Assembly (NCBI GenBank): GCA_948468225.1
Contig: CAOKHH010000005.1
Span: 22,062-62,061, forward strand
Reading direction: 5' to 3'
Length of the DNA: 40,000 nt
Origin: an uncultured Clostridia bacterium
GTDB taxonomy: Bacteria; Bacillota; Clostridia; TANB77; CAG-508
A model generated the notes under the pieces. That model searched no databases. It was not told where the DNA came from and was given only the letters and a program-made list of their open reading frames with translations. A program made the translations under genes and the position numbers. Within the stretch, counting starts at the first letter, position 1. Each line of letters starts with the position of its first letter. Positions 203-36,984 of the stretch are shown here, piece by piece.

Positions 203-238
203 CTTCGAAGTCTCGGACGGGCAATGCCCGCCCCTACG
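203..238 (-). repeat. REP-like GC-rich hairpin element (subfamily B)
   Basis: Plus strand reads CTTCGAAGTCT-CGGACGGGC-AAT-GCCCGCCC-CTACG. On the transcribed minus strand this is a GTAGGG head followed by a GC stem. It is a GC island in an AT-rich spacer between two genes. Confidence 0.7.
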
Positions 239-275
239 TTTTTTCATAAATTACTTTCTACTATCTATATAAATT

Positions 276-977
276 TTATGTTGTTTCTTCTTGATGTTGT
301 TCTTGTTCTTGTTCTTTAAATTCTAAATAATTTATTCTTCCTTCGCTATCATATCCATATTCTGTACATTTAAATATTCTTGTTTTAAATTCTGAAACAT
401 CTGGTACTTTTTTAGTGTATGTTCTGTATCTTATACCATTTTCATAGCCATAAGATACATCTTTTATACCTTTGTTAAAATCGCTTCCTTTTGCAGGATT
501 TAAAAGATTTTGAATATTTTTATCTGAAAGATTCAATGTTGATAATTTATATTCATATTCATATTCTTCACTACCTTTAAATAATGCTGTACCAGTTTCT
601 TCTTCTCCTAGCTCTATTATTTGTCCTTTTTTTTCTCCAGCTAAATATTCTTTATATTCTGCTTCAACTGTTTGAAGGTCAGATAATAATGCAAAGTTAA
701 TTTCTATGTGCATAGTTTCTCCTGGATTTACACTATATCTTTCATTATTATCTATTGCTTTATTTAAAACAGATATTAGATCTGTTCCATATAGTGCATC
801 TCTGGCGTAAGATTCATATTGTTGATTAAACAAAGATAATTGTCTTACTTTATCTGAGTCATCCTGTGATCTAGGTATTACTTGCCAAGTGCTAGATGCA
901 TATACTAATGTTGCAATAACTATTATTGCTATTAAAACTCCACCTGCCATAGTTAATGCTTTTGTTGCATTTTCCAT
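276..977 (-). CDS. Hypothetical membrane-anchored/secreted protein with pilin-like N-terminus (Tad-locus associated)
   Basis: ORF track gives 276..992. The likely start is the ATG at 977 (MENATKALTMAGGVLIAIIVIATLVYASS...), just after the stop of the upstream gene. It has a single N-terminal hydrophobic helix and is a paralogue of 1..170. Confidence 0.55.
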   Translation of the reverse strand: MENATKALTMAGGVLIAIIVIATLVYASSTWQVIPRSQDDSDKVRQLSLFNQQYESYARDALYGTDLISVLNKAIDNNERYSVNPGETMHIEINFALLSDLQTVEAEYKEYLAGEKKGQIIELGEEETGTALFKGSEEYEYEYKLSTLNLSDKNIQNLLNPAKGSDFNKGIKDVSYGYENGIRYRTYTKKVPDVSEFKTRIFKCTEYGYDSEGRINYLEFKEQEQEQHQEETT

Positions 978-995
978 ATATATGCCCCCCAATTT

Positions 996-3069
996 TTACA
1001 TCATTGTTTGCATTGTATCGAATGAAGAAGTCATACTAGATAGTCCTATTACAACTAATGGAACTATTAGGTAACCTACGAATAGGCATATCATTGGTGC
1101 AAATCCAATTCCTTTTCCTATAAGTCCTTTTTTAGATATAAGTCTTTCATTTGATTCTTTTCTTTTTTCTTGATAATATGCTCTTTCTGTGTCTAACTCA
1201 TCAAAAGCATCTACAATTGGTATTTTTTCTACTGCTGCTTGCAAACTTTCAACTATTTGTTCCATTTGTTTGTATGCTATATCATTTTTTAATTCTTCTA
1301 ATGCTTCCCAAGCACCGGATTCATAGTTGTTTACGCATTTTGATATTGGCTCTCTGAAAATATTTGAGTATCTTTCCATCCACTCTAATATCATTTCAAC
1401 ATTTACTCTTTCAATTTTCATAAGCATCATTATTATTGTATGGAATTGCATTACTTCATTTTCCATTTCTAGTTGTCTCATTTTCTTTTGGAATACTAAC
1501 AACCAAATAGGAACATAGTAACCAATTACTCCAAATAAAATTGCCATAAGTAATTCAAACCATTGTAAAGATTCACTATTTATAACTGTTAGTTTGTCCA
1601 TTAACCTATCTGCAACTTTTTGTATATCTTCGTCTGTACTCTTTCTATATTCTTGAGAATATTTTAAATCTGTTTTTATAACATCTACTGTTATTCCAGA
1701 TTTTCCTTTGTATCTATCTAGGTAAACATTATCTGATTCTGTTACTGCCATAGCTTTTTTAATATCTGAATCTGAAGTCAATAAGTTATAGTCTGTAGTT
1801 GGTGATTCATATATGTAACTTATAGAAACTTTGTGTATTTGTCCAAATAAAAATAATGATACAAAAAATGTTAATACACAAGCTACAATTCTATTTATAT
1901 ACAATGTTTCCATTTTCTGTTTTGATGCAGCTTCTTTTAATAATTGAATATTTTTTCTATATTCTTTAGTTCCCTGTTTTGGTATAAATAAATCCACAAT
2001 TCTTTTAATGAATGGTTTTCTATATGCTTTTGCTTGCCAAGTTTGGTTTGGATCTTTGTATGCATCTTTTATGCTACCATTATCTCTTATTTTTCTTATT
2101 AACATATAAGAAATAAAAGTAATTATTATTAAAGCTATTTGCATTATTAGTCCACCTTTACCTTGGTAGAAGTTAGCTGTAAATGAGAAGTTACTAACGC
2201 ACCAATTTTTAAGTGGCTCTATACAAATTACTGGCAAAGCAGCAATTAGTGATAAACTTTGGAATACATAGTCTAATTTATCTCTTTTTAAAATTTCTAG
2301 TTGCATTTCTTGTGTTATATTGTTTAAGTTTTTTAAATATAATGATCCTGTATCAACTTTTCTATCTCCAAATTCTCTTGTTAAATATGAAATTCCCGCA
2401 AACTCTTTTAAATAGCTGTTTGGTGCAACATCATAATATTTTTCTAATTCTCCTTCTGGATCATCAGATTGTAATATTTCGTATATTTTTTCTGCTTGTC
2501 TTGATACTTCTAATTCGTCATTTTGGGCTGCCTCATATATTGCTTCCTCAACCATGTTATATTCATGGTATGCATGTCTAACTTCTGCAAAAAAATCTAT
2601 TTGTTGTTTTAATAATTTTGTATCTAATTTATCTACCATTCCACTCATTCTAGATTCTACAAGTATTGCTTCAAAGAATAGCAATATAACCATAAGTAAT
2701 GCATTTTGCTTTGTAGTTAAAATTATTGCAATAGTAAGTGGTAAGATTATAATTAGTCCTTTTGTAATAATTTTTGCTGTTTGAACCCTTGTTATATATT
2801 CATCATCTAAATTTATTATTTCAAGCCTTCTTCTCATTTTGTTAACATATCTGTTTAAAAAAGGTATCTTTTTATAATATAAATATAGTTTCTGATATTT
2901 AACATCAGAATGATCTCCTTTTCCTTTTGTTCCTTCTTTTAATTGTTTTATACGTTTAGGATCATTCTTTATTTTTTTTGAAATTATTACATAGGCTATA
3001 ACTATTGCAAGAAATAGTCCACCGGCATATAAAAATTAATGTTTTTAGAAAATCTTGTGGTATTTGCAT
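996..3069 (-). CDS. Polytopic membrane protein, TadB/TadC (GspF-like) platform candidate; requires +1 shift at in-frame CGG 3023-3025
   Basis: The 613-aa ORF 996..2837 stays open about 70 codons upstream of its first ATG. An ATG at 3069 with an AAAGAGGTG RBS gives MQIPQDFLKTLIFIC, then CGG-T. Skipping the C joins ...LIFIC-G-GLFLAIVIAYVIISKK... to the long ORF. It has several TM segments and lies adjacent to the secretion ATPase. Confidence 0.55.
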
Positions 3070-3114
3070 TTGTGGTAACCGCACCTCTTTTCGCTCTTTA
3101 GTATGTTTTTTGTT

Positions 3115-34665: not shown

Positions 34666-34679
34666 TATAAATCCTCCAT

Positions 34680-35910
34680 TTATTTTTTTCTGCGTAAAAT
34701 ATAATTTTTATCTACTTTAATTGGTATATGAATTTTTACCTTTTGTCCTGCTTTTCCGAGGATTTACGAACTGAATTTCTTCATCTGTATCAATGTCCCA
34801 TAATTTTTCTATTGTAAATTTATAGGGTTCAATTTTACCAGGAATTATAACCTCTAATTCATCTCCAATTTTTAATCTGTTTCGTATTTCAATAATTGTT
34901 TTTTCTTTATTATATTCCTCAACAATTCCACCAAATTCATAATTTGGATTATATTGTTTTCCCTCATATTCTTGAAAATCTTTGTTATCTCTGCTATTAA
35001 AATAAAAAGTTGTAAGCCCTCTTGTTTTTGTTTTTTCTAATTCATTTAAATACTTTGTATAATCAAAATTTGCAGGATTTGCAATATAATCATCTATTGC
35101 TGTTCTATATGTATTTATTACTGTTGCTAAATAATATTCTGTTTTTAATCTTCCTTCAATTTTTAAGCTATCTACTCCCATTTCAACAATTTCAGGAATT
35201 TCTTTTATTAAGCACAAGTCTTTAGAAGAAAAAATGTATGTACCCTTTTCATCATGTTCTACTGGCATTAAATTGCCTGGTTTATTCGCTTCTTCAACAT
35301 AAACATTATATGCCCATCTACAACTTTGAGCACAATCTCCTAAATTTGCACTTCTTCCAGATAGAAAATCACTTAAAAAACATCTGCCTGAATATCCAAA
35401 ACAAATTGCACCATGTACAAACATTTCCGTTTCTAAATCTTCAGGCTTATTTTTCATTATATCTTTTATTTGTTCTTTATTTAACTCTCTTGCTAAAATT
35501 ACTCTTTTAGCACCATTTTTATACCAAAAATTACTAGTATGATGGCTTACAATATTTGCTTGTGTACTTATATGAATGTCTATATCTGGTGCTTCTTCTT
35601 TTAACAATTCTACAATTCCACCATCTGCAACAATAATTCCATCTACTTTTAACTCATTTAAAGTTCTTGCTTGTTCTTTAATCTCATCATATCTGTCATC
35701 CCAAGCGAATATATTTATTGTTGTATAAACTTTTTTACCAAGTTTATGTGCATATTCTATAGTTTTATATAAATCGTCATTTTCCATTTCTGCTCTGGTT
35801 CTTAATGACAAAGAAGATGTCCCTGCATATATAGCATCTGCTCCATAAAGGAATGCAACCTTTGCTTTTTCAAAAGAACCTGCTGGAGCCAACAATTCTA
35901 GTTTTTTCAT
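34680..35910 (-). CDS. Peptidase U32 family protein; requires +1 shift at in-frame CGG 34755-34757
   Basis: Start MKKLELLAPAG (GAGGTG RBS). ...EIQFVNP is followed by CGG-A. Skipping the C gives ...NP-G-KAGQKVKIHIPIKVDKNYILRRKK, with the stop at 34680-34682. Confidence 0.85.
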
Positions 35911-35976
35911 TATTTTACACCTCATGTAATAATATACCACAAATTTCTTCTAAAATCTACTAAAATCTGCAATAAT

Positions 35977-36916
35977 TTATAAAGCAAAATTTATTCCACG
36001 TGCTACAACTGAACTCATATTTTCAATTAGGTCATCAATTTCCTTTGGTGTTACAATCATATTATAATTTACAGGAATTAGAGCATTTTTAATATCTTCA
36101 TAATTATCTTCTTCTTTTAATTTATTCAAATAATCATTAGACTTTGCTTCCTGTTGTAATTTTTCAATAAATAAATTTAAGCAATCATTTGTTATCGTAG
36201 CCATTTCAACAACCATAGGTACACCAATTGCAATCACTGGAATACCTAATGTATCTATGCTTAATTCTTTTCTAGTATTTCCAACACCTGCACCGAGGAG
36301 TTATTCCTGTATCAGCAATTTGAATTGTGCTACTAATTCTCTCTATACTTTTTGAAGCTAAACTATCTATTACAATTAACATTTTAGGTTTCGTATTATC
36401 TACAATTCCTTTTATTATTTCCAATGTTTCTATTCCAGTTGTTCCTAGAACACCAGGAGATATTGCACTTACAGGTCTTGTACCTTCTTCTAAATATTGA
36501 GGAGCATATTTTAATAAATGCCTTGTCACATCTATATATGATATTACCTTTGGTCCTAGTGAATCTGGAGTTACATAGGCATTACCAAGTCCTACAACTA
36601 GTATATCATCTTCAGCTCCAATATGAACTGATATTAGCTCCTTTAATTCATTAGTTACAACCTCTGCTGCTTTTTGAATTTCATTTTCCCCAGCTATTTT
36701 TAAATTTTTCACATCTATTGTTATATACATTCCTTTAGGCTTACCTAAAGCATTCTCTCCTTCTTCGTTTAATATTTTTACCCTTGATGTTTTTATATTT
36801 TTTGAAACTTCACTTTGCTCTGTTTCTATTCCAGGAATTTCATCTTCCAAATTATTTGCCTTTCTATACATATCGCGTCTTTCATCCGCTAAATCAGTTC
36901 TAAAATCTATCATCAT
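35977..36916 (-). CDS. gpr: Germination (spore) protease GPR; requires +1 shift at in-frame CGG 36293-36295
   Basis: MMIDFRTDLADE...VVGLGNAYVTPDSLGP...IQIADTGITP is followed by CGG-T. Skipping the C gives ...[31 protein letters not shown]..., continuous with ORF 35977..36237. Confidence 0.9.
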
Positions 36917-36954
36917 TCTCTACCTCCTATAAAATATAGATATTTCTTCGAAGT

Positions 36955-36984
36955 GCGGGTCGCCCAAGTCCGCCGACCCCTACA
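36955..36984 (-). repeat. REP-like GC-rich element (subfamily C)
   Basis: GCGGGTCGCCCAAGTCCGCCGACCCCTACA, preceded by CTTCGAAGT as in the copy at 203..238. Confidence 0.75.

Follow-up and report, generated by a model that had tools for sequence, protein, structure and literature searches.

A 40,000-nt stretch of the chromosome of an uncultured Clostridia bacterium (contig CAOKHH010000005.1, positions 22,062 to 62,061; hereafter the window) carries one family of short GC-rich hairpins headed by GTAG, which was found at all 16 sites where the original prediction had placed it and always on the minus strand, the sense strand of the genes. We consider these hairpins to be, probably, repetitive extragenic palindromic (REP)-type, GTAG-tagged palindromic repeats that form a mobile family, and on the comparisons reported here the family occurs widely among Clostridia and reaches an unusual density in this lineage of 27% GC. 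Inspection confirmed an element at each of the 16 coordinates listed in the original prediction, whose headline speaks of at least 17 copies although only 16 coordinates are given. The elements are conspicuous as GC islands because the genome is only 27% GC.

The unit consists of Y-GTAG, a stem of 7-9 bp opened by GG, a loop of 3-7 nt, the returning stem arm closed by CC, and a G, with an optional tail CT(A/T)CGAAG. At least six stem subfamilies were present in the window. Across 47 strict copies (window and related loci) the flank consensus was Y(-1) and G(+1); the pyrimidine before GTAG, the GG that opens the stem and the CC that closes it were invariant, the G directly after the stem was present in 40 of the 47, and there was no conservation further out. 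The GTAG head stood directly at the foot of the hairpin (distance 0) in 14 of the 16 window copies and in 47 of 47 strict copies in related loci, the headless copies being those at 22331 (AACGGG) and 29228 (ATAGAGG). Two loci from relatives are used for comparison throughout: L232, a 21.6-kb locus (assembly GCA_948707265.1) that shares synteny with window 37400-16600 and is 81% identical to it at the nucleotide level along 20 kb, and L011, a 4.2-kb contig whose methionyl-tRNA synthetase (MetRS) is 94% identical to that of the window. The tail, which follows CCG-NN, was carried by three window copies (ACTTCGAAG) and by many L232 copies (CTACGAAGG), and the left flank earlier described as shared was indeed present as CTTCGAAGT at 203 and 36955 and as CTTTGAAGT at 12837. 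Of the stem pairs given in the original prediction, all five were correct, two of them including a G.T wobble, and the REP-like form it proposed, a GTAG(GG) head with a variable complementary stem, matches published descriptors (PMC3733652, PMC6006769). A GTAG-tagged REP is expected to carry GTAG or GTGG within 0-2 nt on the 5' side of the hairpin foot and to be a GC-rich palindrome of 20-40 bp. The elements, a remnant and the open reading frame (ORF) that hosts several of them are as follows, with z given for folding against shuffles.

203..239, minus strand: intact, subfamily B, CGTAG-GGGCGGGC-att-GCCCGTCC-G, then tail AGACTTCGAAG; DNA fold -7.8 kcal/mol, z -2.3, with a G.T wobble at stem position 3.
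6008..6036, minus strand: intact, subfamily A, TGTAG-GGAACGACG-ccct-CGTTGTTCC-G; 42 bits, z -4.3; 22 nt past the stop codon and 50 nt ahead of the next gene.
10935..10962, minus strand: degenerate, subfamily C, left arm mutated; 20.5 bits, z 0.0; followed by a separate small terminator-like hairpin at 10921-10937.
12823..12863, minus strand: intact, subfamily C, TGTAG-GGGTCGACG-tctt-CGTCGACCC-G, then tail ATACTTCAAAG; in the 71-nt murT-gatD spacer; -12 kcal/mol, z -5.0.
18946..18974, minus strand: intact, subfamily A; between ybeY and a DUF3048 gene; z -5.4.
19526..19556, minus strand: degenerate, subfamily D; z -1.6; the orthologous copy in L232 is also degenerate; the TAG inside its GTAG is the stop codon of ORF 19552-20787.
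19560..19584, minus strand: degenerate, subfamily F (GTAGGGGCACCGTTTGTGGGAATA); encodes the last 10 codons of ORF 19552-20787.
22331..22357, minus strand: headless and degenerate, subfamily B (AACGGGAGAGCattGCTCGTCCG); between the divergent yabP and pseudouridine synthase genes; z -2.1.
25445..25473, minus strand: intact, subfamily A; between a DUF1189 gene and ftsH; 45 bits, z -4.0.
26325..26354, minus strand: intact, subfamily E, TGTAG-GGGCGGAC-ccatcac-GTCCGCC; z -2.9.
28672..28700, minus strand: AT-enriched remnant, subfamily A (GTGAAAAATGAGGAGCATCATGTTGTTCC), near the 3' end of ORF 28596-29702; absent from the earlier list.
29189..29217, minus strand: intact, subfamily A; inside ORF 28596-29702, in frame as VGNDASVVPQ; z -3.5.
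29226..29252, minus strand: decayed, subfamily B; inside ORF 28596-29702, read as EGSIARPQ; z -0.6.
29270..29298, minus strand: intact, subfamily A; inside ORF 28596-29702, read as VGNDAHIVPQ; 44 bits, z -3.1.
28596..29702, minus strand: host gene of 368 aa, with three in-frame elements and one remnant.
31279..31304, minus strand: intact, subfamily B, TGTAG-GGGCGACC-att-GGTCGTCC-G; between gmk and glmM; z -2.9.
33344..33372, minus strand: degenerate, subfamily A (head GTAGGA, stem weakened); 16 bits, z -1.3.
36944..36984, minus strand: intact, subfamily D, TGTAG-GGGTCG-gcggacttgg-CGACCC-G, then tail CACTTCGAAG; upstream of gpr; 22.5 bits, z -2.8.

The hexamer CCCTAC was observed 16 times in the window against 4.0 expected, with 15 of the 16 on the + strand, that is, as GTAGGG on the minus strand. 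A strict detector, which called GTAG directly followed by a hairpin of at least 7 bp made mostly of G-C pairs, returned nine copies in the window, every one of them on the minus strand, and 30 shuffles yielded none; because the bulged stems of Escherichia coli REPs escape this detector, the positive control was inspected visually. A covariance model built from 14 copies, a check put forward with the original prediction, recovered 12 minus-strand copies at E<0.15, and its + strand matches simply mirrored these palindromes at lower scores. Folded as single-stranded DNA, 11 of the 16 copies formed strong hairpins (z -2.1 to -5.4 compared to shuffles), and five were degenerate (10923, 19526, 19561, 29228 and 33346). 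The covariation claimed for the stems held in a larger alignment of 35 copies, where five of nine stem pairs were altered on both sides (40 cells), a result matched by none of 500 shuffles. Paired cells reached 98% in this alignment compared to 28-55% with the partner column slid, a percentage that is partly circular as the copies were picked as hairpins; the circularity does not touch the range of pair types seen at fixed positions. The stems vary between subfamilies yet stay complementary, and the family is therefore one of structure. Rfam gave no match at gathering score in the window or in loci L001-L010, and no credible match at E<=1 over window 25400-33400. The window holds 16 elements in 40 kb, compared to at least 17 in the 21.6 kb of L232 and 5 in the 4.2 kb of L011.

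Twelve of the 16 window copies were extragenic, and about ten lay in short spacers of co-directional genes, 0-66 nt past a stop codon and with the next start 19-50 nt away. The earlier statement that the elements sit between a stop codon and the next ribosome-binding site (RBS) applies to these copies and does not extend to those at 29191, 29228 and 29272 (inside an ORF), 19561 (at an ORF end) or 22331 (in a divergent promoter region). One element separates murT from gatD, the products of which act as a complex. The 368-aa product of ORF 28596-29702 had no match in Pfam; the ORF is a real conserved gene with orthologues in L011 (355 aa, 62% identity) and L232 (359 aa), and the copies at 29189..29217 and 29270..29298 are translated within it as a VGNDAxVVPQ-type peptide. 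Copies tolerate transcription and even translation. The elements are certainly transcribed as parts of operons, and they are not terminators. A terminator scan, which agreed with the original prediction on the absence of a sense-strand U-tract and on a non-terminator reading, flagged only three of the 16 copies on either strand, namely 25447 (marginal) on the sense strand and 18948 and 26328 on the antisense (+) strand. With no U-tract on the sense strand, transcription therefore reads through, for example from murT to gatD. Clear terminators with immediate T-runs were present in the window at 23340-23387, 15107-15132, 10921-10937 and 9147-9176. At 23340-23387, where the pseudouridine synthase gene and ftsH converge, the hairpin has a perfect 20-bp stem and T-runs on both strands and looks like a bidirectional terminator.

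Comparison of orthologous spacers, also suggested beforehand, revealed presence/absence differences with respect to both L232 and L011. Within the region shared with L232, eight of 12 window elements had an element in the same spacer, four were found in the window only (31304, 29217, 26354 and 19584), and at least ten were found in L232 only, in spacers where the window has none. At 25473 the window holds subfamily A and L232 a different subfamily, and at 26354 the element is missing in L232 while L011 holds yet other subfamilies. The F variant (GTAGGGGCACCGTT...) occurred at the non-orthologous sites window 19560..19584, L011 ~4200 and L232 11661, and the GACCAA-loop type was likewise found at non-orthologous loci in different genomes; the presence of such rare variants at non-orthologous loci looks like copying rather than independent origin. 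Decay was visible at several sites. Compared to the intact L232 copy, a 10-nt deletion has removed the head at 29252, the stem at 33372 is weakened in the window and its L232 orthologue keeps an intact 10-bp stem with a mutated head (GTAT), and the AT-converted remnant at 28672-28700 corresponds to an intact copy (GTAGGGAACGACGCCCACGTCGTTCC) at orthologous codons in L011. Compensatory stem changes were found between orthologous window and L232 copies at 18974 (A-T vs G-C) and 29298 (T-A vs C-G), which indicates that the hairpin was either under selection at an unchanged site or replaced by a further copy. Taken together, the alignments show that elements were gained, lost, replaced and eroded between close relatives. 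The spacers of L232 also contained runs of the heptamer TGAAKAR (TGAAKARTGAA, 14 matches vs 0.14 expected) at 298-366, 4418-4471, 8839, 15290-15307, 19198-19215 and 21304, often with a GTAGGG element on one side and, just ahead of the RBS, a shared block GTACAAAATTCTTCGAATTTT on the other; such runs also occurred in L007 near 980-1050, and the motif was nearly absent from the window (two matches).

A pattern scan for subfamily A, taking one genome per species, returned 10 loci with a GC content of 28-53%, from Ruminococcus, Acutalibacteraceae, Eubacteriaceae, Eubacteriales metagenome-assembled genomes (MAGs), Anaerosolibacter carboniphilus and one MAG labelled Alphaproteobacteria. The core of the A. 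carboniphilus copy was exactly that of the window, GTAGGGAACGACGCCCTCGTCGTTCCG, and related cores lay between housekeeping genes in Ruminococcus, Acutalibacteraceae and Eubacteriaceae MAGs. The family is present in many Clostridia genomes of 27-50% GC. The single orientation noted in the original prediction stood for the window and its closest relatives, where every copy in the window and in L232 and nearly every copy in L011 (which has one double-headed copy) lay on the sense strand, but not for the family elsewhere, where copies between co-directional genes were sense in 10 cases and antisense in 9. Single orientation is therefore a trait of the window lineage (window, L232 and L011) and not of the family. 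Outside this lineage both orientations were often present, with alternating clusters of 2-4 copies (L001 1591-1783, L010 6720-6938) that resemble bacterial interspersed mosaic elements (BIMEs), and inverted dimers and clusters were present in the Ruminococcus-type loci L001, L010 and L031. An IMG/VR contig classed as viral (L128, 31.8% GC) carried five GTAGGG hairpins at 1413-4748, four of them identical (GGGCGAACagtGTTCGCCC) and all in one orientation, which appear to belong to the same superfamily and to share the single-orientation habit of the window. A broad-pattern scan of viral contigs (1.09 Mb) returned mostly high-GC loci and few low-GC ones, and says little on Clostridia.

REP elements elsewhere are associated with Y1 tyrosine transposases (REP-associated tyrosine transposases, RAYTs), and a cognate enzyme was sought. 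As positive controls, the classical RAYT genes of E. coli, a Chloroflexota plasmid, Kovacikia and Pseudomonas were flanked by GTAGG(G/A)-headed hairpins. On the Chloroflexota plasmid (CP069395.1, 55134-56446) a 183-aa classical RAYT gene lies between inverted pairs of GTAGGGTGCGC... hairpins, and the REP head there is GTAGGG, as in the window family. Group 1 RAYTs have been reported to occur also in Clostridia (PMC5581495). No transposase flanked by GTAGGG-family hairpins was found in the Clostridia loci examined, which were individual loci and not whole genomes; E. coli RayT had no Clostridia match by tblastn in the plasmid collection, and no Y1 genes were found in the 1.09-Mb viral-contig scan. 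A probe based on Y1 motifs of Firmicutes recovered PF01797 proteins (248-253 aa), named REP-associated tyrosine transposase or RayT in their source, from Oscillospiraceae, Syntrophomonadaceae, Wukongibacter, Alkaliphilus and others, one of which was unchanged in at least 10 distinct genomic contexts. The hairpins that flank these genes (L017-L106) were inverted and on both sides, with stems that vary and covary around a conserved 12-nt loop GGGGACGGTTCT, a motif with no match in the window at one mismatch allowed. Many contigs with the PF01797 element measured only ~1 kb, which would be usual for an element in many copies.

On the reading that we favour, that of a probably mobile REP-type family, the GTAG strand would fold as single-stranded DNA on the lagging-strand template, where a Y1 (HUH) tyrosine transposase would read the GTAG and the hairpin and copy or move the element, as E. 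coli RayT does. GC skew was negative throughout the window and nearly every gene lies on the minus strand, so the GTAG strand carries the lagging-strand template sequence, and copying from single-stranded DNA by a Y1 enzyme would explain the single orientation along this replichore. Once inserted, the elements would ride operon mRNAs as stable hairpins without a U-tract and may slow exonucleolytic decay. A secondary effect on mRNA decay is plausible, and slowed decay would explain the compensatory changes at some orthologous copies. The transposase step is the weakest link of this scheme, because no cognate enzyme was found.

A number of observations weigh against such a mobile family. The Y1/RAYT gene flanked by hairpins of this kind that the original prediction had suggested looking for was not found in the loci covered, with no Y1 transposase present in the window or in L001-L015, and a Chloroflexota RAYT used as query retrieved only Chloroflexota-type proteins. 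The clostridial genes named RayT carry a different hairpin, with the GGGGACGGTTCT loop, at the 10 loci of the recurrent protein and in 80 metagenomic relatives, and GTAGGG hairpins were not enriched beside PF01797 genes (six in 243 kb, four of them in one L031 cluster). There were no inverted pairs of the kind known as REPINs and no head-to-head or tail-to-tail dimers in the window, where units were single or head-to-tail, and the orientation of replication is inseparable there from that of transcription. The non-Watson-Crick positions on the GTAG strand, nine G.T and two A.C, speak for the mobile reading in so far as they hint that the GTAG strand is the one that folds, but the G.T excess is partly due to copies inheriting the same wobble within one subfamily. 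The compensatory changes suggest selection on structure at the level of the host, which a purely selfish element does not require. In a variant that we hold to be unlikely, a GTAGGG-hairpin superfamily occurs across Clostridia without a REPtron of its own, is moved in trans by a non-flanked enzyme or is no longer mobile, and has been co-opted as sense-strand operon punctuation in this AT-rich lineage; such co-option would account for the uniform orientation, for the double changes that keep orthologous copies paired and for the in-frame 'REP peptides' (VGNDAxVVPQ) that a conserved protein tolerates.

The main alternative, rather doubtful though with several observations on its side, is that the elements are primarily cis-acting RNA hairpins of the host, exonuclease barriers or processing marks that set the stability of individual cistrons in operons, so that their repetition stems from selection and not from mobility. 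It is consistent with the sense-strand placement in the window, in L232 and nearly throughout L011, with the position of most copies shortly past a stop codon and ahead of the next start, with the read-through expected without a U-tract (e.g., murT/gatD), with wobbles that are G.U-compatible on the sense strand, and with the pairing kept in two orthologous copies by compensatory changes. E. coli REPs moreover act as modulators of 3' untranslated regions and mRNA decay (cited in PMC3733652; bioRxiv 10.64898/2026.03.23.713779). The original prediction held roles at the level of mRNA, or recognition of single-stranded DNA, to be likelier than termination. The two compensatory changes lend an mRNA role some weak support; the rapid gain and loss between close relatives speaks against it, since at 19% divergence there are four window-only and at least ten L232-only elements and some spacers hold unrelated subfamilies. 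The decay of five of the 16 copies, the near-equal sense and antisense counts in other Clostridia, the copies in frame in coding sequence and in a divergent promoter region, and the lack of an Rfam match likewise argue against it, and a simple exonuclease barrier needs neither a conserved GTAG head nor a G after the stem.

Sites recognized as duplex or cruciform DNA by a host protein (gyrase, a nucleoid protein or a polar chromosome-organising factor), with orientation set by replication, have been proposed for E. coli BIMEs, and E. coli REPs and BIMEs are reported to bind IHF, gyrase and Pol I (PMC2817692, PMC3733652). The uniform orientation along one replichore and the short flanks (Y-GTAG and G) conserved across distant Clostridia would agree with this, but a variable stem argues against a sequence-specific duplex site, the asymmetry of G.T vs A.C points to a single folded strand, and rapid turnover, decay and the use of both orientations in other genomes leave the idea improbable here. 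That the elements are terminators, either unconventional ones on the sense strand or a hairpin plus T-run serving antisense transcription on the + strand, is very improbable, as the few copies with a T-run within 5 nt on the + strand (18948 and 26328 among those flagged) stand against the low number flagged on either strand, the different look of real window terminators, and the placement of elements between the obligately co-expressed murT and gatD and inside an intact ORF. Scarcely credible is an origin as ends or remnants of a single known insertion sequence, as a CRISPR array or as chance GC-rich islands, for which nothing speaks beyond superficial repetition: there is no regular spacing, the window has no cas or transposase genes, the stems fall into at least six subfamilies, shuffles give no hits, and neither phage nor Rfam matches were obtained. 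The copies were not the ends of one insertion sequence, further copies were present in relatives and the covariation extended to the larger alignment, so that what the original prediction had named as grounds for abandoning it did not materialize. Readings as terminator, CRISPR, insertion-sequence end, uptake sequence or attC site were rejected on anatomy.

The window itself is a stretch of bacterial chromosome that carries the housekeeping genes ftsH, metG, murT/gatD, alr, glmM, gmk, era, ybeY, recO, yicC and an RNase E/G-family gene (rng) together with the sporulation genes yabP, yqfD and gpr, and its source is therefore a spore-forming, Clostridia-type Firmicute. No tRNA was detected in the window. 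A phage origin was rejected, as megablast gave no phage match and the gene content, for housekeeping and sporulation, is chromosomal. The wider clade, at ~79% MetRS identity, comprises MAGs labelled Clostridiales, Clostridia or Oscillospiraceae, and about 50 members make up the MetRS cluster at an identity of 90% or more. Several window genes are split or truncated, namely glmM (29865-31230, by one extra base near 30192), yqfD (20806-21991), DUF3048 (17881-18994) and gpr (35977-36916), and possibly recO (15875-16450). The L232 counterparts of glmM, yqfD, DUF3048 and gpr are intact (454, 394, 348 and 311 aa), and the four splits stem either from errors of sequencing or assembly or from genuine decay of the genes in this strain. 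A putative type III toxin-antitoxin locus at 15151-15800 (minus strand) has the layout of toxI/toxN, with a ToxN-family toxin gene at 15151-15636 (PF13958, E 2.6e-38), a 35-nt unit in 3.1 tandem copies upstream (15691-15800, 98% match) and a terminator-like hairpin after the repeats (15660-15689). An exact 52-bp direct repeat at 9130-9181 and 10340-10391, each copy holding a terminator-like hairpin (AAAGGCAGGAGCtttaGCTCCTGCCTTT), flanks a 1.2-kb segment with a RhuM/Fic-domain gene (9234-10181) that looks like an inserted or duplicated cassette. The segment 37000-39000 has a higher GC content (31-38%) and no GC skew and may be foreign DNA; one of the two large + strand genes, at 37480-38763, encodes a 427-aa protein with a YfbR-like HD domain and is followed by a GC-rich hairpin at 38780-38817.

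Literature searches with sequence strings and for REPs or REPINs in Firmicutes returned no description of this family, and exact strings matched only primers. To our knowledge, REPs have been studied almost only in Proteobacteria. This probable REP-type family belongs to a phylum in which elements of this kind are barely described, and it has two unusual local traits, the single orientation without dimers and the in-frame copies in a conserved gene. The REP-RAYT model thereby becomes testable in Gram-positive anaerobes, whose common Y1 transposases carry a different hairpin. Mutation pressure at 27% GC should be quick to erase GC-rich hairpins, and intact, compensated and decayed copies side by side let selection against decay be measured. 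Caution is also required in annotation, as ORF calls may come out longer or broken where an element lies, and real proteins gain peptides from the elements.

Among known systems, the GTAG REPs (E. coli REP/BIME and Stenotrophomonas SMAG) are alike in their terminal GTAG at the foot of a GC-rich stem of 6-13 bp with a short loop, in complementary stem changes between subfamilies with frequent G.T pairs, in their location mostly between unidirectional or convergent genes and downstream of coding regions, in occasional in-frame intragenic copies, and in a copy content that varies among related genomes (PMC3733652). The same work defines GTAG REPs, intragenic REPs and REPtrons, lists Proteobacteria, Cyanobacteria, Chloroflexi and the PVC group but no Firmicutes as hosts, and includes some families that are also mostly singletons (Di Nocera et al., 2013, PMC3733652). 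The window family differs in its Clostridia-type Firmicute host, a phylum outside that list, in single units of one orientation where theirs form head-to-head or tail-to-tail dimers, and in a head extended to (Y)GTAGGG with a G after the stem. It largely agrees with the descriptor for REPs near RAYT genes (PMC6006769), which asks for G/C at three of the first four stem bases; the exception is subfamily A, whose stem starts GGAA. A 2025 tool paper counted generic palindromes in three Bacillota genomes and did not describe the GTAGGG family. In REPIN-RAYT systems and REPtrons (Nunvar, 2010, PMC2817692; Bertels and Rainey, 2011, PMC3116915; Ton-Hoang/Messing, PMC3479197), as here, the anatomy implies a single-stranded hairpin with a 5' GTAG guide, and E. 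coli TnpAREP has been seen bound to a REP hairpin (PMC3479197). A RAYT there is flanked by its own REPs, whereas none was found in the loci examined, and REPINs are inverted REP pairs, which the window lacks and its Ruminococcus-type relatives have, as pairs and clusters. The TIRYT/TIRtron (GGGGWSAS motif, PMC3733652) matches the clostridial PF01797 Y1 family with GGGGACGGTTCT hairpins and is alike in pairing a Y1 enzyme with hairpins of variable stem and conserved short motif. Its hairpins differ from the window family, as they have the conserved loop and no GTAG head, and flank the transposase gene in many contexts. Rickettsia palindromic elements (RPEs) are also small palindromic repeats spread in an AT-rich genome and found in frame in genes, to which they add a short peptide. 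They are ~100-150 bp long, CGTC-tagged and alphaproteobacterial, and are reported without a dedicated transposase. The head of the window family, by comparison, is GTAG with GG/CC at the base of the stem, and not a terminal CGTC with A/T base pairs.

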